From Raja brachyura (lineage: Eukaryota): 64,000 nt of DNA. Of the stretch, positions 2,512-63,844 are shown piece after piece. A model generated the notes under the pieces. It saw only the letters and a list, made by a program, of their open reading frames with translations. It had not been told where the DNA came from and made no database searches. The stretch lies in the NCBI GenBank assembly GCA_963514005.1, contig OY740814.1, positions 11,222,001 through 11,286,000 on the forward strand, read 5' to 3'. The translations under genes were made by a program, and so were the position numbers. Each line of letters opens with the position of its first letter. Within the stretch, counting starts at the first letter, position 1.

Positions 2512-2660
2512 CTCAGTCTGACAGAGGTCAGTCTAGAGAAGGGTTTTGGCTCAAAATGTTGCCTATTTCCTTCGCTCCATAGATGCTGCCATACCTGCTG
2601 AGTTTCTTCAGCAATTTTGTCTACCTTCAGTTTTCCAGCATCTGCAGTTCCTTCTTGAAC
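2512..2660 (+). mobile_element. Short Penelope-derived insert (degenerate hammerhead core)
   Basis: gaagggttttggctcaaaatgttgcc...cagcatctgcagttccttcttg. Flanked by agcatacc(g/t)tct at 2500-2511 and 2661-2672. Confidence 0.75.
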
Positions 2661-3654
2661 AGCATACCTTCTGTGCTTGCTCAATAATAACAATTCCACG
2701 TGATTTGAAGGCTCAGTCATTTTAGTGTCTCAATTCTTGTATTCAATATTATTATAGACATAGAGACTGCGTTTGTTTATTCACCAAGTACAATCCCAGA
2801 GCCCATGGCTGAGCTGAAGCTCAGAGGCTGCCTTGCTCAGTCATAGAGACTGAGGTCTTTTTGGATGGTAAATGGATCAAGAGGTGTGGAGACACACAGG
2901 AGATATGGAGACTGAGTGTGAATTTGAACCAGGCACTGATCTCACTGAGTGGTTGAGCTAGCTGGAGGGCCAATGAAAACTGGGACAAGGATAGATGAGT
3001 ACTCAGTGTAAATCAGAGTGCTTGAGTTCTTGATGACTAATTTTACTTTTCTTGTCCTGACTATCTGACAAATTCTGGTGCCACAGTCCTGGAGACGAGG
3101 GCTTCGGGTTGTAGTCCATTTGGTTGATTGTTGTTTCAGGTTGTCTCTGACTAAGTTCCACAGCTGAGGTAACGTCCTCTCCTGAGTCTGAGCTGCCTGA
3201 TACACCGAGCCCACTTTACAGACCCCCTTTGCTTGAAGATCTGCTGAGATGTTGCTCTTTCTTTCCCAGCTTTCCCCTTCATTATACCCACCCAGCAATA
3301 TAGGTGGTATCTGACACCACAGCACACTCCTCACACTACACCATACAACAATATCACAGGCAGCCACTGCCTAATTCTTTTTTTTTTTGCCAATCCACTT
3401 GCATTGCTCCACTGAAGTTTGTAATGCTGTGCCTGAATTGGAATGAAATGTTCACTGTTTGAGTTGACTCGTCCAGCTGTGTTAAATCTCAATGAGTTCA
3501 GATTTAATTATCTTTAACAAGGCATTAATAAGCAAGATGTTGGCATTTGATCTCTACTTTGCTGACGTTGACTGACCCTGTCTTGCACATGTGGAAATGT
3601 ACTGAGCACTGAGGAGTGGGCTGGTGATGTTACTGTACTGCTCCTGTTTACTTC

Positions 3655-3983
3655 AGCCCTGTCCCACGGTACGAGTTCATTCCAAGAGTTCTCCCGAGTT
3701 TGCCCTGATTCGAACTCGGAGATTTACGGTAATGGCCACTCGTCGGTACTCGGGGCTCTCGTGGACATTTTTCAACATGTTGAAAAATCTTCGCGAGACT
3801 TCCCGTGTTTACCTGCCGCAAGCGAGTCGTCCCGAGTACCTGCCGTTAGCGTTACGAGCCGCTAAGAGATGTCCCCGAGCTCCGACGTACCCGCTACGTT
3901 CATTCTCCGTGCTTACCCTGAGTTTGATTTTTTTTTTAACTCAGGAGAGCTCTTGGAATGAACTCGTACTGTGGGACAGGGCT
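3655..3983. mobile_element. MITE, probably PIF/Harbinger-like
   Basis: About 45-bp terminal inverted repeats agccctgtcccacggtacgagttcattccaagag / ctcttggaatgaactcgtactgtgggacagggct. CpG-rich, with internal palindrome atttttcaacatgttgaaaaat. Confidence 0.85.
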
Positions 3984-5460
3984 AGGGTCTGTCACGTGCC
4001 ATGGCAGCACAAGGCCGAGCTGACTGGTATTTGTGTCAGGATAATTCAGGAAATCTTGTAGTCATCTGTTTCACAGTTCAAACGGGCACAGGTAAAAAGT
4101 GATACCCCAATGATTAGTGACACCAAGGTATAGCATAAAACAAAGTAGGTAGGAGAAGCACTTTAAAATGTATAGAACATCGCTGGGAACTTGGCTTTTG
4201 ATTTTTCCAATGCAGTCAGAATACTAAAGATAAACTTGAAAAAAAAGAGATTTGTTACAGACCTGGAATGGTTGGAAATACTTTATGGGCAAGAATCCAA
4301 AAACCTTCAAGTGAAAACGGATTGTGTTGAATTTCTTTAAAAATTAACTCTGGTGTGAAAGAAGTTGTGACATTTTATGCATTTGAAGAAAAATATTTCC
4401 AGTCTCTCCTTCCGTCATAAGTAACAGCTTGCCTTAAATGCTGTTAATGTTTCAGAAAGGAGAGAATTGATGCAAGCAGTTGTGAAAATACCGATCACAA
4501 TTGAGAATGAGATCAAAGGGGCAGGGGTGCTGGAGATGGAGGTGATAGAAAGGCAGTTTACAGAGAGGGTTCCAGGTTCAGACTGAGATGGTCACGGCTT
4601 CCCTGGCAGATGATAGAGTCGGAGGAAGGGGCTGAAATTAATGTATAAAGAGAGTGAGGAAAGGAATGGCAAAATGGAGGGCACATTGGAGGATTTATAT
4701 ATTGAATGGAAATTTTGAACGCCATTTAAATTGGCAATAAATAAAAGAATAAAGGGGTGAAATGAGGTTGATGGATTAGAGACCTTCCTTAAATTTGGAA
4801 CTTTTATTGGGTGGAGCAGCCTCCAAAAAGAATGCTACAATCAGACTAATCTAATCACCATCGTCATTTAATCTAGAGTGGAGCCTTTGATGATCAGAAT
4901 AAACCATGTTCTCCAACCAGCACAGTGTATTCACACAACAGCTGCTTGCAATGTGAAAGCCAAAACTAAATGTCTTAATCATTCCAGAAACCAAAAAAAA
5001 GTTTGATAGATTTCTTTATTTCTTCTCATTTACTGTTGGAGTTTTAAAGTGAGGTATTTTAGAGCTCTATATATATATATGGTTGGAAATGGCTCTTGAT
5101 TTCTAATGCAATAATAAAAGTTGCATTTTCAGGAAATTCTGAACTTAATATTGTGCAATTTACATCACGTTTAGTTTCTCTATTACCTGTACACGTCTTG
5201 GTGCCAGAAAAAAAAAATTGAAAATCTAAAACCCCTTCTCACGGAGCCAAACAAAACACAGATGGTTGCTGTGACATTCAGCCATTGTAAACTTGGTCCG
5301 ATTTGGGTTTTGATTTCCTGTTATGATCCAAGTGTCTCAGAGCAACTGCTTTGCACAGAGTTGACATTTGGTTTGACAGGAATTCGACAAAGCAGTACAT
5401 CTATTTTCCTATAAGAGTCTGTACACCGCATGCCCAACGCTATCAAAGGGTTAAACGGAG

Positions 5461-6180
5461 TAAGAAAGAACTGCAGATGCTGGTAAAATTGAAGGTAGAC
5501 ACAAAATAGAAACATAGAAACACAGAAAAATAGGTGCAGGAGTAGGTCATTCGGCCCTTCGAGCCTGCACCGCCATTCAATATGATCATGGCTGATCATC
5601 CAACTCAGTATCCCGTACCTGCCTTCTCTCCATACCCCCGGATCCCTTTAGCCACAAGAGCCACATCCAACTCGCTCTTGAATATAGCCAATGAACTGGC
5701 CTCAATGACTTTCTGTGGCAGAGAATTCCAGAGACTCACCACTCTCTGTGTAAAGAATGTTTTCCTCATCTCGGTCCTAAAGGAATTCCCCCTTATCCTT
5801 AGACTGTGACCCCTTGTTCTGGAGTTCCCCAACATCGGGAACAACCTTCCTGCATCTAGCTTGTCCAACCCCTTAAGAATTTTGTAAGTTTCTATAAGAT
5901 CCCCCCTCAATCTTCTAAATTCCAGTGAGTACAAGCCGAGTCTATCCAGTCTTTCTTCATATGAAAGTCCCGACATCCCAGGAATCAGTCTGGTGAACCT
6001 TCTCTGAACCCCCTCTGAAATGCTGGAGTAACTCAGCTGGGTGGGTACAGCAGCATCTCTAGAGAGAAGGAATGGGTGACGTTTCAGGTCGAGACCAAGG
6101 GTCTCGACCCAAAACGTCACCCATTTCATCTCTCCAGAGATGCTGCTTGACCCGCTGAGTTACTCCAGCATTTTGTGTCC
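5461..6180. mobile_element. Fold-back Penelope-derived insert interrupted by a CR1 LINE
   Basis: Left arm 5461-5507 resumes at 6018. The arms invert around ggtcgagacc-aag-ggtctcgaccc (~6088-6110). Confidence 0.8.
5508..6017 (-). mobile_element. CR1/HER1-type LINE 3' fragment
   Basis: Translates to VQRRFTRLIPGMSGLSYEERLDRLGLYSLEFRRLRGDLIETYKILKG...FFTQRVVSLWNSLP (CR1 ORF2 C-terminus), with 3'UTR and (tttctatg)n tail. Confidence 0.92.
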
Positions 6181-6439
6181 ACTATCAAAGGGTTGCCTGT
6201 GAACCAGCTACTTGCTCATTGTAAAATGCTGCACTTCTTTTCTCCAAAGATCTGTTTGAGTGTGTCTTCTGCCTCTCTTAATTCCAAGACATAATGGCAT
6301 TATTTTTTCATGGACTATCTTCAATTGATAACCGCCACAATATTGTCCACCTTACAATTAACAAACTTAAGAATGAAAGAAACAAGAGCAGGCTTTGTGG
6401 TGTCATTTATCTGGGTCATGGCTAATCTCGGAGTCATTA

Positions 6440-7886: not shown

Positions 7887-8012
7887 GTGTAGGAAAGAAC
7901 TGCAGATGCTGGTTTAAACCAAAGATAGACACAAAAAGCTGGAGTAACTCAGGGGGACAGGCAGCATCTCTGGAGGGGAGGAATGGGTGATGTTTCGGGT
8001 CGAGACCCTTCT
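7887..8012 (-). mobile_element. Short Penelope-derived insert, 13-bp TSD
   Basis: TSD tccattctgggat at 7874-7886 and 8013-8025. The 5' end falls within the hammerhead core. Confidence 0.85.
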
Positions 8013-8085
8013 TCCATTCTGGGATCCTTTTATTTGCTGTTCCCCATTCTGCTTCCGAAAATGTTGGGGAAAACAATATCAATTT

Positions 8086-8569
8086 GGGCGGCACAGTGGC
8101 GCAGCGGTATAGTTGCTGCCTTACAGCGCCAAAGACCCGGGTTTGATTCTGACCTCAGGTGCTGTCTGTATGGAGTTTGTACGTTCCCCCTGTGACCATG
8201 TAGGGTTTCTCCGGTTTCCTCCCACATTTCAAAAGCGGACCCGTTTGTAGGATAATTGGCCTTTGTAAATTGTCACTTGAGTGTAGGATAGAACCTGTGT
8301 ATAGGTTATCGATGATACACAAAAAGCTGGAGTCACTCAGCGGGACAGGCAGCATCACTGGAGAGAAGGAACGGATGAAGGGTCTCGACCTGAAAACTTC
8401 ACCCTTTCCTTCTCTCCAGAGATGCTGCCTGTCCCGCTGAGTTACTCCACCTTTGTGTGTATCTTCGGTTTAGACCAGCATCTGCAGTTCCTTCTTACAG
8501 GTCATCGATGGTTGGCGTGGACTCGGTGGGCCCAAGGCTTGTTTCCACGCTGTGTCTCTAAAACTAAAC
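8086..8569 (+). mobile_element. V-SINE (HE1-like) with a nested Penelope-derived insert
   Basis: Head gggcggcacagtggcgcagcggta (A-box) and B-box-like gggtttgattc. V-domain ggagtttgtacgttccccctgtgacc. Tail tgtttccacgctgtgtctctaaaactaaa. Confidence 0.88.
8315..8498. mobile_element. Fold-back Penelope-derived insert, 12-bp TSD
   Basis: TSD aggt(t/c)atcgatg at 8303-8314 and 8499-8510. The inverted arms meet at gatgaagggtctcgacctgaaa. Confidence 0.85.
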
Positions 8570-8679: not shown

Positions 8680-8945
8680 AGCTCCCCCCCCCCCAACCTC
8701 CACAATCCGGATCTCACGCATGGCACCCAGCTATTTGTCCCCTCCATCTCCACCACCCACCCATCCCACTGCTACTCTCATCTTCAATCTGTAACTCTTC
8801 AATCGTATTGTTCCCCTCCGCCCCACAATCAATCTGTGGAAGGGTCTTGACCTGTAAACGTCATCTTCTCCAGTGACGCTGCCTGACCTGCTGAGTTATT
8901 TCAGCGCTGTGTTCTTTTGCAGCATCTGCAGTTCTTTCTTGCAAC
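8680..8945 (+). mobile_element. Degenerate Penelope 3' end
   Basis: C-rich tract, then ctgtggaagggtcttgacctgtaaacgtc and gcagcatctgcagttc. Confidence 0.65.
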
Positions 8946-9479
8946 ATTTTGTATTCATCAGGATGGGTTTGTGCCGTTTAATGCTGCGGCAATCCTTAGT
9001 CCTTTACTCAGGGCCAGCTCCTGCTCACAGGCATTGAATGCACAGTAGAGTTGTCTGCTGGTGATGGTCAGTTGCGGACTGGCCAGGGTGTCAGCTTGCC
9101 CGATGGCAAATGGGCCCCTGATGAAGTGGGCCCCCTTTGTCTCCTGACAACCAATATTTTTAGACCCAGTCTGCCACTGGTGATGGTGATCAAGCATGGA
9201 GAGCTGTCTGATGTCACGGAGCAGGCTGAGGGGCCTTCATGTATCTGTGCATCATTGCCCACACCTGGATAGCTGAGATCTGAAAGATCCTGAATCTCAC
9301 GACACGTTTTGGCCTCCATCAGGTTTTTTGGTCAGATTCCGCACAAAAATTCAGTGCAGCCCAAAGGATTTTCTAGGCCTAGATTATTGCCACTAGATAA
9401 AAGGAAAAAAATAAGAGTTTTTAGAACAATGGACAACCTTTGTCCACTAGATGCAAAAGGCTATTAGTCAAAGAAGATC

Positions 9480-9877
9480 ACTTTATATTGCCAGAATGTG
9501 AGGGAATTGTACGCAAACTGGAGGAACAGCACCTCCTATTTCCTCCAGTTTGCGTACAATTCCCCCTCTATCCCCCCTCTCCCACTCTAATCGTCCTATT
9601 AGTTCCATTGTTTGCATCCTTGTATCCTTGCGTTGTCACCTCTTCTCCAGCCATCAACGGGCCATTGTGGGCTCCACCTTTCCTTCACCGGTCCTGCTTT
9701 GTTTGGGCCTTTTCTTACCTCCAGTTCCCTCCCCTCTACTTTCAGGCTGAAGAAGGGTCCTGACCCAAAATGTCACCCATCCTTTTTCCCAGGAGATGCT
9801 GCCTGACCGGCTGAGTTACTCCAGCACTTTGCGTCTGTCTTCGGTGTATACCAGCATCTGCAGTTCCTTTCTACACA
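9480..9877 (+). mobile_element. Penelope-like element 3' end (endonuclease C-terminal remnant plus terminal repeat)
   Basis: RKLEEQHLLF resembles the C-terminus of vertebrate Penelope GIY-YIG ORFs. It is followed by a pyrimidine-rich UTR, a hammerhead-like core at 9747-9774 and the shared terminus cagcatctgcagttcc. Confidence 0.75.
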
Positions 9878-10897: not shown

Positions 10898-10926
10898 TAA
10901 TGGAGATGATCAGATCAGATACATGG

Positions 10927-11015
10927 GTAGACAAAAAATGCTGGAGAAACTCAGCGGCTGAGGTAGCATCTATGGAGAGAAGGAATAGACAACGTTTTGG
11001 GTCGAGAACCTTCTT
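10927..11015 (-). mobile_element. Short Penelope-derived insert
   Basis: gtagacaaaaaatgctggagaaactcagcgg...gggtcgagaaccttctt. catgg is duplicated at both ends, and the empty site is visible in the opposite inverted-repeat arm. Confidence 0.8.
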
Positions 11016-11072
11016 CATGGTTCTGCATTATTGGAAGCAGTTGTCTACAGTTTGTGTGTTTGTCCACGAGTC

Positions 11073-13617: not shown

Positions 13618-13700
13618 GGGTCTCGACCCGAAACGTCGCCTAGCTCCTTCGCTCCTTAGATGCTGCTGCATCCGCTGAGCTCCAGCTTTTTGTGTAACCC
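13618..13700 (+). mobile_element. Short Penelope-derived insert, 13-bp TSD
   Basis: TSD gtgaatgggacca at 13605-13617 and 13701-13713. The insert starts at hammerhead helix II, gggtctcgacccgaaacgtc. Confidence 0.87.
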
Positions 13701-16190: not shown

Positions 16191-16347
16191 GATGTTTCGG
16201 GTCGAGACCCTTCTTCAGATTGGAGAAGGGTCTCGACCTGAAACGTCACCCATTCCTTCTCTCCAGAGATGCTGCCTGTTCCGTTGAGCTACTCCAATTT
16301 TTTGTGTCTATCTTCGACTTAAACCAGCATCTGCAGTTCCTTCTTAC
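16191..16347 (+). mobile_element. Penelope-derived insert with inverted hammerhead head, 15-bp TSD
   Basis: TSD acagttacaacaaaa at 16176-16190 and 16348-16362. A minus-strand core at 16191-16218 abuts a plus-strand core. Confidence 0.88.
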
Positions 16348-17619: not shown

Positions 17620-17750
17620 AAAGGAACTGCCGAGGCTAGATTGTAGCAAAGATCGACACAAAATGCTGGAGTATCTCAGCAGGTCCATTTTCTCCAGTGA
17701 TGCTGCCTGACCCGCTGAGTTATTCCAGCATTTTGTGCCTATCCAGATAA
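17620..17750. mobile_element. Fold-back Penelope-derived insert lacking the hammerhead segment
   Basis: cacaaaatgctggagtatctcagcaggtc ... gacccgctgagttattccagcattttgtg. Confidence 0.7.
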
Positions 17751-18520
17751 AGGCGTCTGCTCCGAATCTGCATTTCTGAATGTGTATTGAGATTCAAATC
17801 AGTTTATTGTCATATGCTCCAGGGTGTCATATGCTCCAGGCTTGTTCGCATGAAGCTCGTAAAGTACACAGCGTATATGTTGACGATGGTTACAACAATA
17901 AATACAATGTTGAGTGCAAAACAGCGGAATAGTGCATAGATTGTAGTGCAATCTGAAGTAGTGCAAAGCTACTTCAAATGGCACTGCTAACTCTCACATC
18001 AGCAGTGAGCTGGGTGTGGACAACCGTCAAAGTAAATAAAACTAAAACAGGGACTAAAATCCCAGCCGCCCAATTCTCTGAGTTAACAGCTGCATTAACT
18101 ACAAAACCCATCAGTCACCCAGCGGGGTGTCCAGAGTTCCTCGAGTGTGATCTATTTTAAAAAGGGAAAGCATTAAAGACTTTGAGGGCCCATGGAATAC
18201 GACAAGTGAATGTGCTGCCGCTGTGACAGTGTGGATGGTACCTCCTCTCCCACACATGCATCACACTGCTGATCTTACGACTTGTGGCTATATACAAACA
18301 GCTGTCCAAAACATGTCCCTCACCTGGCCTAACATTTACTTTGCCAATTCCGTCTTAAGCCAAATTAAAATATCAGCCAAATTAAGCCAAATATCTGAAG
18401 AATATTTAAATTGTTTCTTTCTACTCTCTAAGATTTGTCACTTTGTTTTAATTGCACTTTGCTCGTGGGCTGTGTTGCCATTCATATGTTGTAAAGTTGG
18501 CATTCTGTGTTTCTAATTAG

Positions 18521-19225: not shown

Positions 19226-19384
19226 ATAGAATGGACTGTAGCAATTCCTAGCCTGTGGTTCATGGAGGGAGTAATACTGATGCTTGTGTAATATTTTACT
19301 GTTTCTCAAATGTTAGCTGAATGAAGATTAAGCATCCTCTCCTCAAACATCTTGTGACAGGGAAGCCAGCTAAAGTTAGAAGAA

Positions 19385-19597
19385 AAATAACACAAAGTGC
19401 TGGAGTAACTCAGCATGTCTGGCTGCATCTCTGGACAACGTGGGTAGGTGACGTTTCAGGTCGAGGCCCTTCTTCAGCAGTTTGACCAGAAGCGTCGCCT
19501 GTCCATGCCCTCCAGAGATGCTGCCTGACCTGCTGTGTTACTCCAGCACTTTGACTTTATTTTTGTAAACCAGCGTCTGCATGTCCTTGTATCTCCA
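19385..19597. mobile_element. Fold-back Penelope-derived insert
   Basis: Inverted arms. Minus-strand core CTGAAGAAGGGCCTCGACCTGAAACGTC at 19450-19477. Confidence 0.8.
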
Positions 19598-21692: not shown

Positions 21693-22194
21693 ATGTTGTT
21701 CACATCAGTCCAGGAAAGCTCTGCTTGTGAGGTTTTTCAAGATAGTTTTGCTCAAATGTGATGGATTCACTCAACTGTCCACAGAGAATCAAAAATAAGT
21801 AAATCTTGCAAAGGTTTGTTCATATGTTGCCTACCAGGAGCACAGACTGGGAAACCTTTCTTTCAGCTCCCTACCACGGTACTCTCTTCAGAATGGAGCC
21901 TTTACAAAATGTAGAATTCCAACACATCAACGATTTGGCAAATGTTTACTTTTAACATAGACGGCAAGTAATCAATGAATTAATTATCAAGGAACAAAGC
22001 AGCATTGTGAGCTACATTTCCAATAGCAATACGTATTTACCTTTCAAAACAAGGGAAGCGGAGCCTTTACCAAATGCAACATTACCAATTTATACCAACC
22101 GATCCCATTGGAATTTAGCCCAATCAACGCATTGAACCTGTGATGTCTTCTTAATCCTGCAAATATTTCACTTACAAAATGAATAACATCTGCA

Positions 22195-22290
22195 GGTGGA
22201 CAAAAGTGCTGGAGAAACTCAGTGGGTGCAGCAGCATCTATGGAGCGAAGGAAATGGGCAACGTTTCGGGCTGAAACCCTTCTTCAGACT
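22195..22290 (-). mobile_element. Short Penelope-derived insert with hammerhead core
   Basis: The minus strand reads CTGAAGAAGGGTTTCAGCCCGAAACGTT (22260-22287). Confidence 0.82.
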
Positions 22291-22634
22291 GCAAGGTTAT
22301 GTGAAAGGATCAAGGGGAATATCACAGATTCAACGGGCTGAAAGGCTTATATCTAAGCTCTTTCAACCAATGCTTCCCAAACCTAACACACACACGCACT
22401 ATGTAAAATGATTCTCACCTCTCCAGTCACTGTTTTGACGGATATCTTAAATCAGCGTTCTCTGGTTGCCAATCTTCTTTCCAATGGAAAGAATATCTCC
22501 CTATTTAATCCTTATATTTAAATTAAATCCCCCTTAACCTATTTCTGTTCACTCATCCTTAATATTCCCAATAAATCAGCATCCTGGTCTTGACACTGCG
22601 ATGGCCCAGAAACAGGACCTAACAGTGACTTATC

Positions 22635-30525: not shown

Positions 30526-31035
30526 AGTCTAGATGCAAACATTCTAGATGCTAAGCACACTTCTTTACATTGATGTTGAGTGTTTGCATTAGGGATTGAA
30601 TTTCCACCTTAGGTCTCTCCCTGTTTTTTCATAACAGACTCTGGAGCAGGTGAACATCTGAAGCAGAAATCTCCGTTGCTCTGTTTTCTTCGCTGTGCTT
30701 GCAGCATTTGAATGTTCCTCTTGAACCTTAAAGAAATGTGATATTCCAGGTGCCGCTTCACCACAGCATTATAAAACTTGATAACTCTTATTTTCTATTC
30801 ACTTATTGTTGAATCGTTGGTTGACCGCAGCTCTACAATGGCTGAACACGTTTGTGTTGACTCTCCTTGGAGCCCTGGGTTTCTTCCAGCTTTGCGTTGA
30901 ACCAACAAACAATATAGGTTGACACAAACAACTGGCGATGCTGGGATCTTGAGGAAAAAATAAAATTCTGGAGGAACTCAGCGGGACAGGCAGCATCTCT
31001 GGAGGGCATTGATTGGCCAATGTTCTGGTTGGGAC

Positions 31036-31432
31036 CAAAGATCCTATAGCGGAGCAAGATAGATCACTCCTTCTAAATGCAATGGATGACGTGTAGTACG
31101 CAATGGAACGGAACATGGGTCTTTTTTCATCCATTTGCGTAAACCTGACCCGACCGGACCCGACTCGCAATGTAATCAACGTTGCAGGTGGACAGTTTGT
31201 GTTACAAAACTAAAATTCTGAAAATGAGGAGAAGATTTTTACTAAATAACTAGTTATCTTTGCTCCGTTATGGGATCTTTGGTGCGGAGACGGAAGTTGG
31301 CTACGGAAATGGGGCCTTAAATTACCCATGAATCTGCCCATGACCGTACTACGTGTTTTTCGTCGAGTGACCTATCTTGCTTCAGATTCAGATTCAGATT
31401 CAGATTCAGATTTGCTTGCTATAGGATCTTTG
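31036..31432. mobile_element. Non-autonomous DNA transposon with 8-bp TSD (P- or hAT-like)
   Basis: TIR caaagatcctatagc...gctataggatctttg. Perfect TSD gttgggac at 31028-31035 and 31433-31440. Confidence 0.88.
31381..31411. repeat. (TTCAGA)5 microsatellite inside the right TIR
   Basis: ttcagattcagattcagattcagattcagat, flanked by ttgct on both sides. Confidence 0.9.
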
Positions 31433-33029
31433 GTTGGGACTATTCTTCAAGATTGATGGGGGGGGGGGGGGGGAAGCTGGAAGAGAGGTGGAGGCAGGAC
31501 TAAGCCAGGCAAGTGACAGCCGGATTGGTAGATGGGAGGACAAAGGTCAGAGGAATATAGGAGACAAAAGGCTGTGTGATATATAATGTTTTGATGTGAC
31601 ACCATGACTTTGTGATGAAGCCCACACAAGTCCTTGTGATAACGGCAGATTAATAAAGCAGTGATGGGGTGATGATGGTAATACTCAGTTATTCATTGGA
31701 AGGAGACACAAGAGACTGTAGATGCAGAACACCAAGTGCTGGATTCTGAAGAAAGGTCCCACCCCAGGGTGTGGGATATGTGTGCCAGTATATGATCCTA
31801 TAACACTGGCATTCCGCCAACTTGTGCCATGACCCCACTCATCTGCAACATATGACACTCCTTACTTTAGAGTCACTTTGCAACGAACATCTGAATCTCT
31901 TCGTAAAGGAAGTCAAATAGTGTGGAAGCGGACTAAACATTCTCAGAGGCCAGGAATTGAAGGATGCAGGGGGAATCAGCAGATTGAGAATGATTCGGAT
32001 GTGCGATAGAATCTGGATCACTGACCTAAAACCAGAAGACAGTCTTTCACTTTTATTTACTCCTGACTTGGATCTTAAAACCCCATCTCCCTATGACTAG
32101 AATACAATGTACAGGAGTAACTCAGAAGGTCAGGCAGCATCTCTGGAGGACATGATAGGCAAAGTTTCAGGTCAAGACCCTTCTCCAAACTCCAGCACTT
32201 TGTGTTCTAAGCAGGGCTCCAGCATCACCAGTTCCTTATGCCTCCTACCAATACATAACTGTGTATTAACATCATCATTAACCTCATTACTGCTCAATTA
32301 ATCTGCCTCTTCACTAGGACTTGTGCCGGCTTCATCAATAAGCCACGGTGTCACATTTTAAAATGATTACCATGTTCAAAGCTGAAATTTGTCCAGGCTC
32401 CACGAAGTCAAAGGGAAATAATGCTGCACCGTTTTGTAGGTTCTGGGATTTGCATTGAATTTTCTCGAAAGAAAGCATGACAAAAAGAACCAAACTGGAA
32501 TCATCAATTCTTGCTGATTTATTCACCCTCTGGGACTTCACGCGCGTTTGGCGGCCAGCACTGACCGTGCGAGCTGCCATCTGTACTCATTTCCACAGAT
32601 TTGGCCTAATTGAAGTCAGTGGAAGCAAATGTTGGGCGGCAAATGGATCGCTAAATGCAAACCGCTCCCCAATAGACTTACTTTGATTCTTTCAAATCCT
32701 CTGCAATCGAAAATATTCGGTGAACCTTTGTAACTTTGTCTGTGCCAAAATGGGGCGACGTTTGTGTACTGCCTAGGTGTACTGCAATTCCCCGTTATCA
32801 TCTCCGGATCAATGAATCGTTGGGGAAATATTTCCCCACTGCCTAGATGGGTGCAAATCCAACGACATTCGAGAAGCTTAAGACTGCTCAGGGCACAACA
32901 GTCCACTTGGTCAGTAGACCATTCTTCTTCCAAAACATTCACTCCCTCCACCACTGCATGGAGGGATGACGTGGAAAACCAAAAAGCTTCATGCAGGAAA
33001 CGTTCTCGAGGATTATAGATTCCAACACG

Positions 33030-33610: not shown

Positions 33611-33872
33611 TTCCATATTCCATATTCTTCCATGCAGAGAATCTGCCTGTCCCACTGAGTTACTCCAATGAATCGTTGAAAGCACAATAAGGAAAAGGAT
33701 GAGATTGAAAAAATAAAGCTCGAGAAAAATAAGTAGGCAGTGAGTGACTTCTCAAAGCCTTACCACCATCAACAGGTTGATATGGGAATTATTTCCCCAC
33801 TGCCTAGATGGGAGCAAATCCAATGACATTTGAGAAGCTTAAGACTGCTCAGGGCACTTGGTCATTGGAGAC

Positions 33873-33944
33873 ATAAGATCTTTCCAGATTCTTCAATCCA
33901 GAGATACTGCCTGTCCCACTGAGTTACTCCAGCATTTTGTGCCT
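33873..33944 (+). mobile_element. Short Penelope-derived insert, 12-bp TSD
   Basis: TSD gtcattggagac at 33861-33872 and 33945-33956. Confidence 0.75.
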
Positions 33945-37310: not shown

Positions 37311-38152
37311 TCTGCCATGGTTGTCTAGCCCACTGACCTATACCTTGCCAAGGCCAGTCACAGCTCTCGGCGATTGTCTGAAGAAAGGTCATGACCCAAA
37401 AACTCATCAATTTATATCCCTCCACAGATGCTGCCTGACCTTCTGAGTTCCTCCAACAGTTTGCTGGTTGTCTCTCTATCCTGCTTATTTAGATATCCTC
37501 ATTCTTGTGCTTCTCTCAGACGTGTTTCTCTCACTTACCCCTCGAATGGTACGTTGGTGACCTGGTCTACTAACTCTTATTAACCTTATATAACTGAGCA
37601 TGCAAAAACGACAAGGCAGATGCCCCAGCGCATCATTTAATACAACAACTATGCGCAGGTCAACTATGTGCAGGAATGATACTGATTCTTATCTGCTGGT
37701 TTTTGCTTTTACTCAACCAGAGTCACAGCAGATTGGGATTGATGTAATACAGTATTTGCACTGCTGCAAGGGTACGAGACAGGGAGAATGAAATGTTGCA
37801 GGAGAGGATGAAGCATGCAGAGAAGGAGGTAGGGCACTTGGAGTGGGATGGGATGCTGGAAGAGATGGAAGAATGTCCAACCCCACAACGGGGAGACCAC
37901 CTCAACCCAAGAACTCCATGCAAGCCGCCCGTGCGAATCTCAGCCATGCATCCGTAAAGCATCGACGCTTCACAAAAATTATTTCCCAGTGAATAATTCT
38001 CACTGCTGTGATCACAATTCCAAGCTGAAACTGAACGAGATCCACAATGCCATTAGTTCTCAATGTCGCTGCAGCCAGGAAGTGCTAAACATTTGCAAGT
38101 CAACCATTTGCAAGGCTGCCAATGGGAGGGACATTGTTTTACTCACTTCCCG

Positions 38153-38804: not shown

Positions 38805-38961
38805 ACTGACTTTCAAGTGAGTTAATGGTTTGGTGTCTCTCTGCGTGTTCCTTGCTCCGCGATAGAAAAAAGTTATCAAAACAAACCATACTTCGTCATT
38901 GCACAAATACAGTAAATATCCCGTTTTGTAATAATTCCATAAATCAAATTATTGTTCCTGG

Positions 38962-39056
38962 GATAGACTCAAAAAGCTGGAGTAACTCAGCGGGTCAGGC
39001 AGCATCTCTGGAGAAAAGGAATAGGTGACGTTTCGGGTCGAGACCCTTCATCAGGC
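38962..39056 (-). mobile_element. Short Penelope-derived insert with the best-preserved hammerhead core
   Basis: Same family as the inserts above. It ends immediately upstream of the core. Confidence 0.85.
39027..39054 (-). ncRNA. Minimal type I hammerhead ribozyme motif (activity untested)
   Basis: The minus strand reads CUGAUGA-A-GGGU-CUCG-ACCC-GAAA-C-GUC. It has both catalytic boxes, a 4-bp helix II, a loopless palindromic helix III (ACGU) and a GUC cleavage triplet. Confidence 0.65.
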
Positions 39057-41206: not shown

Positions 41207-41418
41207 AATAGACAAAGACAATAGGTGCAGGAGTAGGCCATTCGGCCCTTCGAGCCAGCACCGCCATTCAATGCGATCATGGCTGATCATCCCCAATCAG
41301 TTCCCCATTCCTGCCTTCTCCCCATATCCCCTGACTCTGCTATTTTTAAGAGTCCTATGTAGCTCTCTCTTGAAAGCATCCAGAGAACCAGCCTCCACCG
41401 CCCTCTGAGGCAGAGAAT
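41207..41418 (-). mobile_element. CR1-type LINE tail inserted into a Penelope hammerhead stem (host 41193-41206 and 41419-41540)
   Basis: ccgaagaagggtc|caatagac...ggcagagaat|gtcccgacctaaacgttg. Confidence 0.85.
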
Positions 41419-42927
41419 GTCCCGACCCTAAACGTTGTCTGTCCATTCCCCTCCACAGGTGCTGCCTGACTCAACTCGTTGAGTACCTCCAGCACTTTGT
41501 GTTTTTGCTCGAGATTTCAGCATCTGCAGTTTCTCGAATCTCTGGCTTGTTCTTCTGGTTTTATTGCCACCAGGTAGGAATTTCCAGCAGTTCTTCACCA
41601 AGGGTTTTCACGTTCCAGAGTCACTAATCCCCATTGCATGATTTGGGCCACATTCCTCCTGTAACTCGCCCTCACGAGGAGTAACATAAAACACGGCACA
41701 TCAAGCGCATAATTACAAACACAAAAAAATAGGAAAGCCAGATTATTTAACTGACAGATGCCTCATTGGGAAAATGTGATGAATGGGTGTCTGTGCTGCC
41801 TGATGGAATATAACACATCCATGTCTTCTCACTTTTCAAAAGGAGCATATTAAGCCTTTGTGAGGCTTTTGTTGTGTGACTTTGGATCATGAATGGAGCC
41901 ACAGACAAAATGATTTGAGGTTTGCACCAGCTTTATTAGTGATCTAAAAAGCCCTGCTGTGAGCGCGGTGCAAATGGCAGCTTGACTCTCTGTATCACAG
42001 CGCTACCTGAACCAAATGGTAGCGCGGTTAAGACTGGGTGCCAGCAGTCGCAGACATTCGTGGCAGCACCACATCCACCTAACAGGAAACAAGGCGCAGA
42101 TTATTCTAAACTTGTTCCAAAATTCTGTTTCGGAAAAGAAAATGCTAATTTTCCCTTCAGCTTTGAATTTTCTACAGACGCGAGGAGCGATTCGATTGAA
42201 AGCGGATTCCTAAAGTTTTTGTGCACATGAAACCAACCCGCCCCATCTTTGTGATGAAACCGTGACCAGGTGACTTCCAGTTCCCCTGGATTGAACTCCA
42301 CCCAAACACTAGCAGTGGGGTGGAAAGTGACGGGGAACGGCCAAAGCTGTTCCTGAGCGGTGGCGAGTGGTCCCGTGTTCCCTGCTGTTTACACTTTTTA
42401 TAAACAGTTTTATGTGAAATACTTTCAGTGATATAAATTATGTTTATGATACCAAGTTGATACCAAGACATAAACTTCATTCAACGCTCAGGCCTCTTAA
42501 ATAAATGGAGGGGGGGGGGGGGAAGAAATAATGGCAAATGGATTTAATGTACATAATTGTTAAATTGTGCATATTTAAACAGGAATGACAAACATGTATA
42601 TACGATGATAGTGTACCTGTTTGATGATGGCTGTGGTTGCTATCTAAAAGGTTCAATGTGAAGTTAAATAAATATTAAGACCTCGTATGCATAGACGAAG
42701 AGAAAGGCCACCTGTTCTCCCAAAGCCAACCCTGTCCTGGCTTCTATACCAACCATTCACCAGGGTCCACAGGGCTATCCCACACACACCAATGTAAAAT
42801 GCACACATAAGGAAACAGAAGTATTTGGCATACGGCACTCATCACATCTCGTCCATAATGCGGAAATGTGTTCATTGCAAGGAACCCTACGCACATCCTT
42901 CAGGTAACAAACCTGTACACAATAAAA

Positions 42928-43064
42928 GAAGAAGTCTGAAGAAGGGTCTCGACCTGAAACATTACCTATTTCTTCGCTCCATAGATGCTGCCTCACCCGC
43001 TGAGTTTCTCCAGCATTTTTGTCTACCTTTGATTTTTCCAGCATCTGCATTTCTTTCTTAAACA
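42928..43064 (+). mobile_element. Short Penelope-derived insert, 14-bp TSD
   Basis: TSD tgtacacaataaaa at 42914-42927 and 43065-43078. Core CTGAAGAAGGGTCTCGACCTGAAACATT starts at 42936. Confidence 0.88.
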
Positions 43065-43479
43065 TGTACACAATAAAACTTCTGTTTGGATACCTTGGCA
43101 GGACAACAAAAGCAAATAATTGTATCCAAATGGTGAGAGATTGCAGAGGCTTGTGTGCAAATGAAGCAGATGAGGAGGGAAGGTTTTGAAAGTCATTGTC
43201 ATTGGGAGGGGAAAATGAATACAAAGTAGAGAGGTAATGCTTTAGGGATGTGGGGCATTGGTGAGGCCAGATATACAGTACCATGCACATTGTTGGTCCC
43301 TGTATTCAAGGAACTGTGTTCATGTGTTGAAAGCAGATCAGGGAAGGTCTACTGGGCTGAGTAGTTTGCTTTATATGACAAGGTTGAACAGGCTAGGCTG
43401 CAGTTTTAAGAATACAGCAAAACTGTTCCCCAGCAAATGTCATATGAGAACGTATTATCCAACAGTCATATAAATAATA

Positions 43480-43610
43480 TGTTGGAAGGAACTGCAGATC
43501 CTGGTTTGGATTGAAGATGGACACAAAATGCTGGAGTAACTCAGCGGGACAGGCAGCATCTCTGGAGAGAAGGAATGGGTGACGTTTCGGGTCGAGACCA
43601 TTCCTCAGAC
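43480..43610 (-). mobile_element. Short Penelope-derived insert
   Basis: Minus-strand core CTGAGGAATGGTCTCGACCCGAAACGTC at 43581-43608. Confidence 0.85.
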
Positions 43611-43814
43611 ATTTTCTAATAACCAGCCATTCCAAACCATCTTAGAATGCTTTTCTTTCAATACTTTTACCATCTTTTCTTCCACTGTTGCTAAATAACA
43701 GGATCTGATTTCTTTCCCCTTTTAAATATTGTCAAAAACATTTCTCTGTTCAATATATCCAGACCATGAGCAAGTAGTTGTATGAGCACAGGACTTGTTT
43801 AATGCACCACCAAT

Positions 43815-47032: not shown

Positions 47033-47156
47033 TAGGTGCAGGAAGGAACTACAGATGCTGGTTCAAACCGCAGATAGACACAAAAAGCTGGAGTAACCCA
47101 ACGGGACAGGCAGCATCTCTGGAGAGAAGGAATGGGTGACGTTTCAAAGGTTCTCA
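47033..47156 (-). mobile_element. Short Penelope-derived insert, 14-bp TSD (1 mismatch)
   Basis: atgggaaag(a/g)tagg at 47019-47032 and 47157-47170. Confidence 0.8.
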
Positions 47157-52499: not shown

Positions 52500-52676
52500 G
52501 GGTGGAACTGCAGATGCTGGTTTAAACCGAAGATAGACACAAAATGCTGGAGTAACTCAGTGGGACAGACCGCATCTCTGGAGACCCTTCTTCAGTCTCG
52601 ACCTGAAATGTCGCCCATTCCTTCTCTCCAGAGATGTTGCCTGGCCCGCTGAGCTACTCCAGCATTTTGTGACTAT
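52500..52676. mobile_element. Fold-back Penelope-derived insert, 12-bp TSD
   Basis: TSD cttatgtgtgtg at 52488-52499 and 52677-52688. The pivot is gagacccttcttcagtctcgacc. Confidence 0.87.
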
Positions 52677-53847: not shown

Positions 53848-53990
53848 AAACAAGGAACTGCAGGTGCTGGTTTACAGAAATGAAAGACAAAAAGCACAGG
53901 AGGAACTCAGCAGGTCAAGAGGCATCTCTATCCATGTTCTCCAGAGATGCGACCCGACCGGCTGAGTTATTCCAACACTTTGTGTCTTTC
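53848..53990. mobile_element. Fold-back Penelope-derived insert lacking the hammerhead segment
   Basis: aaggaactgcaggtgctgg...actcagcaggtc / gaccggctgagttattcc. Confidence 0.7.
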
Positions 53991-54348
53991 TGACGTTCAA
54001 TGGTTCAATGATTCTTTATTGTCCTGTATGCACAGCACAGGGACATTCTTTTGCACAACCCACTAATGTACGGTTGCGATATTTTAGCGCCTCGTATGTT
54101 AGGTAATGTGTAAGCATTTGTGAATAAAAGAAGATGGTATCGTGAGATGTTCCATTGCATTTGTAGCAGCAGCATAAAAATAGGGAGAGAAGGATTGATA
54201 TTCCAGGGATAGGGGGAACTGGGGCAGCAGGTCTTCAGATTTGTGTACAACGCACGAGAGCAGTGAAGAGAATCTTACCTTGGCAGTCGCTGTAAATTCA
54301 CTGGACTTTTTCCTGAACTACATGGTCAAGCCTTTGACAATTCATTTT

Positions 54349-54640
54349 GGGGCAGCATGGTGGTGCAACGGTAGAGCTGCTGCCTTGCAACGCCAGAGAC
54401 CCAGGTTCGATCCTGACTGCGGGTGCTGTCTGTATGGAGTGTGTACGTTCTCCCTGCGACCTTGTGGGTTTTCTCCAGGTTCTTCGGTTTCCTCCCACAG
54501 GCTTGTAGGTTAATTGACTTCTGTAAATTTTCCCTAGTGTGTAGGATCGTGCTAGTGTACAGGTGATTGCTGGTTAGCATGGAATCAGTGGGCCGAAGGG
54601 CCTGTTTCCATGCTATATCTCTAAACAAAACAAAACTAAA
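54349..54640 (+). mobile_element. V-SINE (HE1-like)
   Basis: Head with ggttcgatcc B-box, V-domain and CR1-like tail. Confidence 0.9.
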
Positions 54641-57900: not shown

Positions 57901-58230
57901 AGGGCAGCACAGTGGCACAGCTGATAGTGCTTCTGCCTCAGAGCGGCAGAGACCTGTGTTCGATCATGCCCTTGTGTGCTGTCTGCTTGGGGTTTGCACG
58001 TTCTCCCTGTGACCGCGTGGGTTTCCTCCAGGTGCTCCAGTTTCCTCCTGCATCCCAAAGACATGCGGGCTTGTGAGTTAATTGGCCTCTGTAACTTGCC
58101 CCCTGGTGTGCAGGGACTGGCTGAGAAAGAGGAATAAAATAGAACTAGTGTGAATGGGGTGATGGACCAGCAACGTAGACTCGGTGGGCTGAAGGCCCTT
58201 TTTCCATGCTCTATTTTTAAACTAAACTAA
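57901..58230 (+). mobile_element. V-SINE (HE1-like)
   Basis: gggcagcacagtggcacagctg head, V-domain and (ctaaa)n tail. Confidence 0.88.
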
Positions 58231-60022: not shown

Positions 60023-60094
60023 ATTGTGTTTGCAACTAGTCCCCATCAGTCGCCCACCCCCGCCCCTCAGAGTCGTGCCTCTAAAACATTAGGA

Positions 60095-60644: not shown

Positions 60645-60985
60645 GAACCATAGACATAGAAACATAGAAATCAGGTGCAGGAGTAGGCCATTCGGCCCTT
60701 CGAGCCTGCACCGCCATTCAATATGATCATGGCTGATCATCCAACTCAGTATCCCGTACCTGCCTTCTCTCCATACCCTCTGATCCCCTTAGCCACAAGG
60801 GCCACATCTAACTCCCTCTTAAATATAGCCAATGAACTGGCCTCAGCTACCCTCTGTGGCAGAGAGTTCCAGAGACCCACCACTCTCTGTTTGAAAAAAG
60901 TCCTTCTCATCTCGGTCCTAAAGGATTTCCCCCTTATCCTTAAGCTGTGACCCCTTGTCCTGGACCTCCCCAACATCGGGAACAA
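60645..60985 (-). mobile_element. CR1/HER1-type LINE 3' fragment
   Basis: LFPMLGRSRTRGHSLRIRG...LWNSLPQ, nearly identical to 5508-5845. Confidence 0.92.
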
Positions 60986-61914: not shown

Positions 61915-62302
61915 CAGCCACAGCCGATATCCATGCCATTCCCAGCCACCGAAAATATCCACAGCATTCCCAACCAGATCCCATTCCCAACTCAGCAGAT
62001 ATTTATCCTATTCCCACATCGAAAATATACACAGCAATCTCAGCCACAGTAGATATCCATCTCATTCCCAGCCCGCCGGAAATATTCATCACATTCCCGG
62101 GAACAGTGGATACCATCCCTTTCCTAGCAAGAGCAAATTTCAGACCCACTCCCAACAACAGCGGGTATCCATCCCATTCCCAGCAATGTAGATATATCCA
62201 TTGTATTCCCAACAACTACGGACATTAATCCCATTCCTCTTATCATTAAATTTCCAACCTATTCCCATCACAGCAGATATCTATCATATTCTCAACAAGA
62301 GC
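61915..62302. repeat. Degenerate ~28-bp minisatellite
   Basis: A recurring unit close to CATTCCCAGCAACAGCAGATATCCATCC, roughly 13-14 diverged copies. Confidence 0.75.
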
Positions 62303-62899
62303 ACACAGTAAGAGTCTTGTGGAATATTACAAACCCTGATTGTCCAAGGGCTCCACACCGTGAGTGCGAAACATGACCACCCTGGCTCCTCCTAGGATGA
62401 AACTACCTCCATTCCTTCACTACTGAGAAAGTCTTGTGGCTCAGTTTGCGTGTGGCGCCACCTTCTGACCCACTTAACCAACTCTCATATCATTTAACTA
62501 ATGCAATGAATGCAAATTGAATGAAGAACCAACTGGTTCTGCTTGCTACAGCAGTGAATGGATGGGCTGGCAGTGCTCTTTACTGTATAACATGAGTAAA
62601 GACGTCAGTACAGGAGATTTCAGAGTCACATCCACTCACGGATGAATGATTCAACCTAATGATGAACTATAAACCACAGGAACCATGAAATAGATTTTCC
62701 ACTGGTACATTTTGTTGCGGCCTTCATCTTATTTCTTTGTGAAATGCATCGATTACTTCTTTTAGCTGTATTATATCCAGTTTATTATATTCATAGTAAG
62801 GCACAATGGCACAGTGGTAGAGTTGCTGCCTTACAGCGCCAGAGACCCGGGTTCGAACCTGACTACAGGTGCTATCCGTACAGAGTTTTTACGTTCCCC

Positions 62900-63626
62900 C
62901 AGGTGGCGCCAGCAATTGCTACCTCGACAACAGTCTGTCTGTCCCTTTCTTCGTCAATGTTTCTGTAGTATGTGTTAAATGTATGTTTTTAATGCTCTTT
63001 AGCTTGTGTTTATGTGGGGGAGGGTGTTAGGGGAAACTTTTTCTAATCCCTTACCTCGACGGAGATGCGTTTTTTTTCTGTATCGTATATCTGTCCGCAC
63101 TGCGGCCTAACATCGAGGAGTTGGCGGCCTCTGCTGGAGACCGACTTCGAGGGCTCCACCACGGGAGCCCGCGGGACTTTCACATCGCGGAGCCAGCGAT
63201 CCCTTTGCCAGGGATCGACCTCTGAGCTCTCCCGCCGGTGCCTGCGGACTTTCACATCGCGGAACTCGGGGTCTCTGGTTAGAGACCGACTTCAGGTGCT
63301 CCATGCTGTAGGAGTTTCGACCGCTCCGAAGCGGGAAGCTTCAATCGCCCCGACGCGGAGGCTTCGACCGCCAGCTGCGGGAGCTTCGATCGCCCTGACG
63401 GATGGTTTAACTGCCCCGACCGCGGGAGAAAAATGAGGGAAGAAGATTAGACTTTATTGCCTTCCATCACAGTGAGGAATGTGGGGAATCAGCTGTGGTG
63501 GATGTTTATGTTAACTTTTATGAAGCTGTGTATCTTGTTGCTTTTTTTGTGTGTCTGTATGGTAATTCGCATATCACTGTACCTTAATTGGTACATGTGA
63601 CAATAAAAGACCTTTGAAACCTTTGA
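62900..63626 (+). mobile_element. ~730-bp non-coding retroposon with a Rex1/Babar-like 3' end
   Basis: CpG-rich, internally repetitive middle. It ends gtacatgtgacaataaaagacctttgaaacctttga. Confidence 0.6.
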
Positions 63627-63844
63627 TCAAGAAGGAACTGCAGATGCTGGAAAATCGAAGGTAGACAAAAGTGCTGGAGAAACTCAGCGGGTGCAGCAGC
63701 ATCTATGGAGCGAAGGAAACAGGTAACGTTTCGGGCCGAAACCCTGAAGGAAATAGGCAACGTTTCGGGCCGAAACGTTGCCTATTTCCTTCGCTCCATA
63801 GATGCTGCCGCACCCGCTGAGTTTCTCCAGCATATTTGTCTACC
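63627..63844. mobile_element. Fold-back Penelope-derived insert
   Basis: Inverted arms with a central near-perfect palindrome at 63746-63792. Confidence 0.87.

Follow-up and report, generated by a model that had tools for sequence, protein, structure and literature searches.

The window analysed is a stretch of 64,000 nt from Raja brachyura (GCA_963514005.1, OY740814.1, positions 11,222,001-11,286,000, forward strand). A profile built from six natural copies of a short repeat gave 37 matches in the window and none in the reversed window. The refined profile gave 35 matches, corresponding to 27 insertion events of 44-223 bp. The abundant family of more than 20 related short inserts described in a first-pass annotation of this DNA was thus recovered, at about one event per 2.4 kb (roughly one per 3 kb had been claimed). 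Eight of the 27 events are head-to-head inverted pairs, which that annotation had overlooked. The features are listed below (cols, profile columns; TSD, target-site duplication; pair, head-to-head inverted pair, for which no strand is given).

198..292, - strand: old partial unit, cols 22-123, no TSD
2512..2660, + strand: full unit, cols 1-135, patchwork 5' extra; 12-bp TSD 2500-2511/2661-2672, one mismatch
5459..5507, - strand: tail fragment, cols 84-133, adjoining a CR1-like 3' end
6018..6187: pair, cols 14-87 / 10-101
7887..8012, - strand: simple unit, long 3' end; perfect 13-bp TSD 7874-7886/8013-8025
8315..8498: pair, short + long arm, within a SINE-like repeat; 12-bp TSD 8303-8314/8499-8510, one mismatch
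8830..8943, + strand: old unit, cols 1-133, about 20 nt of native upstream sequence
9478..9877, + strand: 5'-truncated Penelope copy; GIY-YIG ORF end RKLEEQHLLF, 3'UTR about 9560-9742, hammerhead from 9747, tail to 9877
9502-9564: local inverted duplication inside this Penelope copy
10925..11017, - strand: simple unit, short 3' end
13618..13700, + strand: simple unit, short 3' end; perfect 13-bp TSD 13605-13617/13701-13713
16191..16347: pair, 33-nt inverted arm + full long arm, centred on a TCAG-N-CTGA palindrome; perfect 15-bp TSD 16176-16190/16348-16362
17620..17775: old pair without hammerhead
19382..19589: old pair, short + long arm
22190..22291, - strand: simple unit, short 3' end
30925..31036, - strand: old unit, cols 14-128
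32102..32191, - strand: old unit, cols 2-92; weak inverted tail piece to about 32238
33624..33667, + strand: fragment, cols 37-81
33873..33944, + strand: unit without hammerhead, short 3' end; perfect 12-bp TSD 33861-33872/33945-33956
37376..37464, + strand: old unit, cols 3-90
38958..39056, - strand: simple unit, short 3' end; sole exact match to the motif of the first-pass annotation
41406..41534, + strand: old unit, cols 6-126
42928..43064, + strand: full unit, long 3' end; perfect 14-bp TSD 42914-42927/43065-43078
43479..43611, - strand: full unit, long 3' end, begins at the fixed 5' stop; TSD not found
47033..47156, - strand: unit, cols 24-134; 14-bp TSD 47019-47032/47157-47170, one mismatch
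52500..52676: pair, long + short arm; 11-12 bp TSD
53850..53996: old pair, long + short arm
63624..63841: pair, long + short arm, small extra inverted piece; 14-bp TSD 63610-63623/63842-63855, one mismatch; absent from the first-pass annotation

Fifteen events span the whole hammerhead, five lack only its first box and seven lack most of it. The pattern CTGA(A/T/G)GA-A-GGGT-YTCG-RCCC-GAAAC-GT(C/T), said to occur in most inserts, was overstated if taken literally: one event matches it exactly, and 10 of the 27 match it when up to four mismatches are allowed. In the Rfam search that had been suggested, no hammerhead family matched the window at E ≤ 5 and only sub-threshold matches to miRNA-type hairpins were obtained. 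All nine TSDs claimed earlier are present at the boundaries given for them. Seven exceed our score threshold of 9, which none of 102 swapped-flank controls did; those of 2512-2660 and 8315-8498 (12 bp, one mismatch) score 8.3 and 8.7, just below it. A tenth above the threshold flanks 63624-63841, while 17 of the 27 events have no recognisable TSD. The TSDs, of 9-16 bp, support the target-primed insertion that had been postulated. The sequences of the type-A search set (L174-L203) are too diverged for clean TSDs.

Genome-wide, we estimate about 0.87 million insertions, and one young 70-mer has 16,713 exact copies, indicating a very young burst. Among 399 sampled events, 290 are single and 91 are simple head-to-head pairs. 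Because they cover about 4% of the sampled sequence, the units matter for repeat annotation in Raja brachyura, where they risk being mislabelled as SINEs, MITEs, miRNA hairpins or retrozymes.

The Penelope origin proposed for the units is supported by their linkage to coding sequence. Positions 9478-9540 of the longer copy read RKLEEQHLLF in frame, which ties this copy to the end of a Penelope ORF, as claimed. Elsewhere in the genome, relatives of its 3'UTR have a GIY-YIG end upstream and the unit downstream. The same unit sequence occurs in short inserts, at the 3' end of 5'-truncated ORF-bearing copies and as the 5'UTR of long elements, the ATG lying about 40 nt past the tail. At 5 of 25 loci (L154, L161, L162, L165, L170), a unit in direct orientation runs into the 5'UTR and ORF start. 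With the inverted copy and the 35-nt tail, this direct 5' copy has the organisation of a pLTR. The search for a partner carrying RT and GIY-YIG with the same terminus succeeded in part: both domains were found in linked frames, but no intact full-length ORF was, the longest open frame among the 150 scored being 467 aa (L023). This frame matches RVT_1 (E 0.006) and GIY-YIG (E 0.003), while L028 matches GIY-YIG (E 3e-4) and L037 matches RVT_1 (E 4e-4), all below the Pfam gathering scores; units lie directly downstream in L037 and L028. The motifs YIDD and DKG and a CX4CX2C linker are present (CNRRRCNTC-type in L023 and L028). Together, these weak matches and motifs point to an EN+ Penelope-like element with a GIY-YIG domain C-terminal to the RT. 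A PDB sequence search with the 467-aa frame returned no match. A CX2-5CxxC linker between RT and EN is a Neptune feature (PMC8557442), although the motif is common to Nematis. Judged from sequence, the unit is the 5'UTR/pLTR end (putative minimal hammerhead and tail) of a Penelope-like element with RT and GIY-YIG, which its linker motif marks as Neptune type. What is repeated here is thus one end, with its ribozyme, of an element whose kind is already known, and the family may well be catalogued somewhere already.

The first-pass annotation had identified the motif as a minimal type I hammerhead, an assignment that the core boxes, helix II pairing and conservation support. The candidate ribozyme has CUGANGA, a bulged base, helix II, GAAA and a palindromic ACGU (15.2-16.2) in place of helix III. 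Helix II is paired in 83-86% of cases and A15.1-U16.1 in 91%; helix I has two pairs only. The core was expected to be more conserved than its surroundings. This is true across the three types of element, which differ at 1 of 32 ribozyme columns versus 25 of 103 tail columns (P = 0.009), but not within single copies, where core and tail decay alike. In predicted folds the CUGA box is sequestered, and the units fold no better than shuffled sequences (z -0.4 to -1.1). The copies suggest that the hammerhead is under selection in source elements, yet was uncut in the templates of present copies. A long-range pairing between the CUGA box and the long start site was rejected: it appeared in one predicted fold (z -1.1), and covariation is lacking in most copies (A-T 72, A-C 64, G-C 22, G-T 6).

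The ends of the units are discrete, as had been anticipated. The 3' ends lie at two positions separated by 35 nt, one about 94 nt and the other about 129 nt downstream of the CUGA box: for 280 single events, 135 are short, 119 long and 26 other, and in a young set of 95 copies, 50 end at 93-96 and 29 at 127-130. The 5' ends cluster as well: most lie 1-8 nt ahead of the CUGA box and so some 30 nt on the 5' side of the position where the ribozyme would cut. This holds for 194 of the 280 single events, which begin at columns 1-8, and for 58 of the 95 young copies, which stop within 8 nt. Of the 240 matches that extend to the hammerhead, 47 continue, 107 stop within 15 nt and 86 adjoin a second unit, which is inverted in 78 cases. 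There is no boundary at the cut site itself: only 8 of the 280 starts fall in columns 30-36, versus 4 and 12 in the neighbouring intervals. Nested exact genome counts (37,471 for a 42-mer, then 29,208, 16,713 for the 70-mer and 5,088) show no excess loss there: per nt, copies are lost at 2.75% within the ribozyme, at 3.1% over the cut site and at 10.3% immediately upstream; the last count omits a known one-letter variant, and the local pass rate is 39% (37/95) versus 30%.

Such a boundary refutes ordinary random 5' truncation of a LINE-like element, to which we give practically no credit. Copies passing the boundary are truncated variably (111-808+ nt), as it predicts. However, about 10% of copies are lost at each of the 9 nt preceding CUGA, whereas the 190 nt beyond them hold only a handful of stops in 37 copies, and the share of single events starting at columns 1-8 is equally contrary to it. 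The boundary could also be a 3' splice site (pyrimidine tract and CAG/TCTGA), with reverse transcriptase falling off at or just past the junction. All 3'UTR types do end in a pyrimidine tract and CAG, the letters preceding TCTGA resemble exon ends, and the intron of D. virilis Penelope ends at the 5' side of helix I (PMC4209133). However, true intron-removed copies were found at 0 of 543 junctions, the single match being native 3'UTR; the young subfamily does not retain the donor proposed at the stop codon; and the extra 5' letters of TSD-defined inserts, mostly 0-8 nt, are not a constant exon. We regard a splice site as very improbable. A back-splice circle joining an AAG/GTATG donor to CAG/TCTGA was also sought and rejected (1 chance-like match of 391).

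We consider it likely that the short inserts are cut-short products of the element's own target-primed reverse transcription and not an independent family. The endonuclease would make two nicks 9-16 bp apart, each priming reverse transcription internally on RNA at one of the two fixed sites (twin priming). As this RNA would carry the module twice, priming in the 3' copy would give long, randomly truncated copies, and priming in the 5' copy would run off at the RNA 5' end after 95-135 nt. That end would probably be a capped transcription start within the initiator-like YCAGTCT. The cDNA ends would then be joined to the target, or to each other via the palindromes of TCAG-N-CTGA and helix II, and short patches would be self-templated. 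Although the 3'UTRs differ otherwise, YCAGT shows 86-96% conservation among them, and 13 of the 20 short inserts delimited by TSDs begin with G (post hoc, P = 3e-5). Against a capped start, the extra G before AGT (5 of 14 cases) is not significant, and terminal C addition does not require a cap. Contigs X1 and X2 have loose ends at both 3' sites, and X2 also at the 5' stop, but as they may be DNA they are given no weight as support. The lack of an exact TSD for 57 of the 95 young arms, partly due to short flanks, also counts against this scheme, as does the failure to find an intact full-length ORF.

In the head-to-head pairs, a long arm faces a short arm in 67 of 77 cases (38.4 expected, P = 7e-12), and in all 17 young TSD-closed events. 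Some long arms stop near the short site (e.g. L210, L317), as twin priming on a single RNA predicts. Against it count 10 same-length pairs (LL or SS) out of 77, 22 unclassed pairs out of 99, and arms that mostly overlap over 60-90 nt, so that twin priming would need strand displacement or two RNAs. Fold-back accounts for this overlap more simply. Here, the cDNA would stall at an RNA structure or at the TCAG-N-CTGA palindrome, fold back and copy itself (possibly with an antisense template), and the tail would be a product of end resolution by the endonuclease; the identity of the repeats would be the same, and only the two-nick internal priming and capped-start steps would be replaced. Self-priming with palindromes at inverted junctions and EN-mediated resolution of the tail have both been proposed (PMC3846280 and PMC8557442, respectively), junction centres are often perfect palindromes, and in 59 of the 73 pairs that could be typed the two arms belong to one type. 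Nevertheless, single inserts with no inverted arm end at the short site about as often as at the long one (135 vs. 119), so that each of the two behaves like a site of priming. The long arms stopping at the short site, the presence of both T and A at palindrome centres and the folding of the units, no better than shuffles, also go against fold-back, and 37 of the 95 young copies cross the same palindrome and then extend for hundreds of bases. Fold-back therefore appears rather unlikely, though it is the strongest competitor of two-nick priming.

The first-pass annotation had seen in the units a retrozyme-like, non-autonomous family of tiny mobile units. This view was not supported. The units are not a retrozyme: same-strand pairs within 450 nt number 16 among 313 hammerhead-complete matches, are mostly irregular and never exceed three units in a run, and 5' ends show no excess at the cut site. 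In each of the subfamilies examined, short inserts have sequence and haplotypes in common with long copies that bear an ORF, and no distinct short-copy lineage apart from the autonomous partner was found among about 125 young copies, which have few variable sites. It is nonetheless conceivable, if improbable, that short copies keep an internal promoter, transcribe themselves and are mobilised in trans as a SINE- or retrozyme-like unit. The discrete ends, the number of events, the young burst and occasional short tandems of 2-3 units speak for this, and internal priming would regenerate the unit from any transcript holding it. Conversely, long copies account for 13 of 30 and for 37 of 95 young copies and carry the same haplotypes, types A, B and C are alike in their proportions of stopped, inverted and long copies, whole hammerhead units form no tandem monomer arrays, and back-splice or circle junctions gave only the chance-like match. 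The units look like by-products of the autonomous element.

It is a tenable, though tentative, reading that these repeats are a near-million-copy in vivo record of the Penelope cycle, in which a single capped RNA would begin immediately 5' of a hammerhead left uncut, a dimeric RT-endonuclease would use two fixed internal starts, one per nick, and strong-stop cDNA would integrate alone. If so, inverted pLTRs, the one-sided tail and solo hammerheads would fall under one mechanism, and ribozyme cleavage would not be what defines the template. The repeats thus bear on how PLEs replicate, on why they leave inverted ends with a one-sided tail and on the role of the hammerhead (PMC8557442, PMC11167929). 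The young, very abundant subfamily with clean TSDs allows base-level predictions: two RT starts, their strand-asymmetric use, a start at AGU/GU and an uncut ribozyme. Two internal RT starts, PLE hammerheads, the inverted pLTR and the tail at one end only have all been published before; our search of the main texts of papers found neither this family nor a fixed 5' stop described.

In L1 twin priming, both nicks prime on RNA and leave an inverted 5' arm inside one TSD; the units differ in that their start sites are fixed and most of their arms overlap and are thus duplicated. Metazoan non-LTR retrozymes (PMC7229834; bioRxiv 10.64898/2026.07.22.740005) are likewise short, non-coding and PLE-related, with a type I hammerhead and long TSDs when present. 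They are tandem 150-450 bp repeats with one hammerhead per monomer and circles processed at the cut site, whereas our units are single or head-to-head, bounded by RT starts and a point upstream of the ribozyme. For PLE minimal hammerheads, thousands of single motifs were assigned to truncated PLEs in fish, coelacanth and frog, the available part of that paper naming no cartilaginous fish (PMC4209133). The elements listed above, from CUGANGA to the palindromic ACGU, are shared; here helix II has 4 bp, helix I only 2 bp, and numbers are about 100-fold higher. Canonical EN+ Penelope-like elements of Neptune type (PMC8557442, PMC3846280) share the RT + C-terminal GIY-YIG ORF, the CX2-5CxxC linker, pLTRs, heavy 5' truncation, the inverted 5' pLTR, TSDs, a 30-40 bp tail often at one end only and partial tandems (L154, L161). 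In the sections available, both papers describe solo pLTRs only as rare recombination or deletion products, while here most copies consist of the terminal 95-135 nt only, with a sharp 5' boundary just before the hammerhead and about 0.87 million events. Finally, PAc (Poseidon, Anolis; PMC11167929) likewise has two AC-rich internal RT starts downstream of the hammerhead that delimit the tail, uses uncut RNA as template and extends both DNA strands in vitro. A fixed 5' run-off is not reported in the portion of that paper available, its ATG lies inside the ribozyme and not after the tail, and its start site does not differ between strands, in contrast to the one long and one short arm of the genomic pairs described here.

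A profile built from six natural copies of the unit, a 45-230-base insert with a minimal hammerhead and a tail, gave 37 matches in the window against none when the window was reversed, which confirms the family described in the first-pass annotation. With a refined profile, 27 insertion events were identified, 8 of them head-to-head inverted pairs. All nine target site duplications (TSDs) previously claimed are present: seven exceed a threshold reached by 0 of 102 swapped-flank controls, two (12 bp, one mismatch) fall slightly below it, and a tenth, not among the nine, lies above it. The proposed literal motif fared less well since most copies are decayed: it has one exact match among the 27 events, and 10 of them carry it with at most four mismatches. 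From 116 stretches of 10 kb at round coordinates, a sample that is not formally random, we obtained 492 profile matches in 372 events, i.e. 3.2 events per 10 kb (bootstrap 2.8-3.6). For the 2.70-Gb genome, these stretches give an estimate of about 0.87 million events, with the unit accounting for 4.0% of bases. In a young subfamily, one 70-mer has 16,713 exact genome copies (control, 0). The repeat family is real, very abundant and of an already known kind.

The window is rich in SINE-like and CR1-like repeats, which are insertion targets for several units, and many of its units are probably intronic. In appearance these repeats are of the cartilaginous-fish kind. Its neighbouring features are:
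20029-20436 (+), aldehyde dehydrogenase exon (PF00171 at E 2e-18), also placed at about 20065-20253
8086-8300, 35304-35503, 36393-36521, 40821-40949, 47703-47902, 54350-54532, 57903-58102 and 62796-62945, second abundant SINE-like family, presumably HE1-like
5527-6000 and 60668-60967, CR1-like 3' ends

The suggested Penelope link holds: genomic sequences related to the 3'UTR of 9560-9740 are preceded by a GIY-YIG end and followed by the unit. With the endonuclease segment as query, the genome yielded 97,668 first-look candidates, 150 of which were scored (longest open frame, 467 aa). The expected partner domains, reverse transcriptase and GIY-YIG, both occur in long copies as weak Pfam matches, together with YIDD and DKG motifs and a CX4CX2C linker; PMC8557442 gives a linker of this type as a feature of Neptune and Nematis. 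The 5' end of the element was reached by walking upstream in two steps. The unit in direct orientation runs into a 5'UTR and ATG at 5 of 25 loci, the ATG lying about 40 nt beyond the tail, and in two partial tandems (loci L154 and L161) the ORF end and 3'UTR precede the unit. The unit thus stands both before the 5'UTR/ORF and after the ORF end/3'UTR, which makes it the pLTR end and 5'UTR of a Penelope-like element (PLE).

Several irregular elements were observed. The element at L154:1056-2458 has lost internal sequence; about 1.3 kb long, it keeps the unit on either side of a partial ORF (pLTR-partial ORF-pLTR) and is a candidate non-autonomous deletion derivative. In the young subfamily (locus L274 and others), a unit of type B goes together with a 3'UTR end of type A and an ORF end peculiar to the subfamily, a mosaic that suggests module exchange among source elements. 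In the window, a local inverted duplication (9502-9564) has taken the place of about 70 nt where the ORF of the long copy ends; it forms a near-perfect hairpin (sub-threshold Rfam miRNA match) and looks like a template switch during insertion. A strong donor-like AAG|GTATG overlaps the ORF ATG (L154:1220-1235 and locus L308), and a pyrimidine tract with AG lies within the tail near column 51. Regulated splicing is possible, and no evidence of it was found; splice and back-splice products were looked for among genomic copies and not found.

Discrete ends had been proposed, and the 5' boundary is indeed sharp, about 30 nt upstream of the ribozyme cut site. Among 375 matches (760 kb plus the window), 240 reach the hammerhead: 107 stop at most 15 nt upstream, 86 adjoin a further unit (inverted in 78 cases) and 47 read on into native 3'UTR. 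For 95 young arms, 58 extend no more than 8 nt upstream (mode 2-3 nt), whereas the remaining 37 go on, almost all of them beyond 140 nt, two having been reclassed by eye from stopping to continuing. Nested exact genome counts fall from 37,471 for sequence starting just past the cut site to 29,208 once that site is included, 16,713 on reaching CUGA and 5,088 at 11 nt beyond, the last omitting a one-letter variant (local pass rate 39%). The loss per nt is 3.1% across the cut site, 2.75% up to CUGA and 10.3% beyond. Starts show no excess at the cut site: 8 of 280 single-event starts fall there, vs. 4 and 12 in the flanking windows. Given these counts and the few starts at the cut site, the boundary is therefore discrete and upstream, and ribozyme cleavage does not define it. 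The YCAGT preceding CUGA, which we take to fit the initiator consensus, is 86-96% conserved in 107 copies with otherwise different 3'UTRs. Of 20 TSD-defined short inserts, 13 begin with G (P = 3e-5, post hoc, counted by eye); G precedes GT in 9/14 (P = 0.005) and AGT in 5/14 (not significant). A capped RNA start at this boundary seems to us marginally favoured. We found no published account of the family or of a fixed 5' stop; supplements, Dfam and Repbase may hold the family.

Two AC-rich sites 35 nt apart account for most 3' ends of the 280 single events (135 for the short one, 119 for the long one), with 26 located elsewhere. Measured from the C of CUGA, the 3' ends of the 95 young arms fall 93-96 nt downstream in 50 cases and 127-130 nt downstream in 29, and TSDs measure 9-16 bp, with a mode of 15 (38/95 arms). 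As described in PMC11167929, reverse transcription by a lizard PLE in vitro starts at two internal sites delimiting the tail, both DNA strands are extended and uncut RNA is used.

Among 99 head-to-head events, 77 were classable: 67 combine one long and one short end, against 38.4 expected (P = 7e-12), the others being 7 short-short and 3 long-long. Every one of the 17 distinct young events with a closing TSD of at least 9 bp has the long-short combination (149 arms examined; 18 rows, one duplicate). Junctions are located on the palindromes of TCAG-N-CTGA or helix II, and small recopied patches are often present there. Twin priming, known from L1, appears reasonably probable here. Each of two staggered nicks would prime at its own fixed internal site. 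On the 5' module copy of the RNA, synthesis would run off at the probably capped end after 95-135 nt; on the 3' module copy, it would yield long truncated copies, and the two cDNAs would be joined via palindromes. Alternatively, one cDNA could stall, fold back and copy itself; arm types agree in 59 of the 73 typed pairs. Because this fold-back account disputes only two steps of the mechanism, the confidences of the rival accounts are not additive. The discrete ends yield testable base-level predictions for the Penelope cycle.

Other arrangements were also seen. At L284 (G000:C1:1532453-1532695), two young long copies lie tail-to-tail about 20 nt apart, one ending at the short site and the other at the long site. 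A 2.3-kb inverted young insertion (L299/L300, G000:C1:3169311-3171469), located inside an older unit, has one long and one short end and seems to be flanked by a 14-bp duplication. Two independent minisatellites (L041:4133-4788 and L039:7697-8087) have 66-nt and 54-nt repeats from the middle of the unit, nearly identical internally and without a complete hammerhead per repeat; they may reflect reiterative RT jumps or later slippage. In a related organism (run X1 vs. L154:700-1500), contigs link the tail end to the unit start with about 35 nt of 3'UTR-like sequence between, an arrangement of short direct tandems; the contigs may be DNA.

The same unit is common to long, short and inverted copies of the young subfamily (13, about 12 and 5 in a first set of 30; 37, 46 and 12 in the set of 95). 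Both main tail haplotypes occur in short (38 and 8) and long copies (23 and 8), and types A, B and C show similar proportions of copy classes. Tandem monomer arrays of the unit are absent among the genomic events examined. With no such arrays, and with units and haplotypes shared by short and long copies, the retrozyme-like separate family of the first-pass annotation is not retained: the inserts are very probably a PLE by-product. Mobilisation of short copies in trans is possible.

In the predicted hammerhead, helix II is paired in 83-86%, helix I has two pairs only and helix III is a palindromic ACGU. Differences among the three types affect 1 of 32 columns in the ribozyme, vs. 25 of 103 in the tail (P = 0.009), so that the candidate hammerhead is conserved in source elements. 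Within single copies, it decays at the pace of the rest of the unit. The Rfam scan of the window did not detect a hammerhead, and predicted folds of the unit are no better than shuffles. The predicted structure matches the minimal PLE hammerhead motif as published in PMC4209133. An inverted copy with a tail often at one end only is already reported for PLEs in PMC8557442 and PMC3846280, the same qualitative pattern as here. In contrast, tandem monomer arrays define non-LTR retrozymes (PMC7229834, bioRxiv 10.64898/2026.07.22.740005), whereas our units lack them, and retrozyme identity was rejected on this ground.
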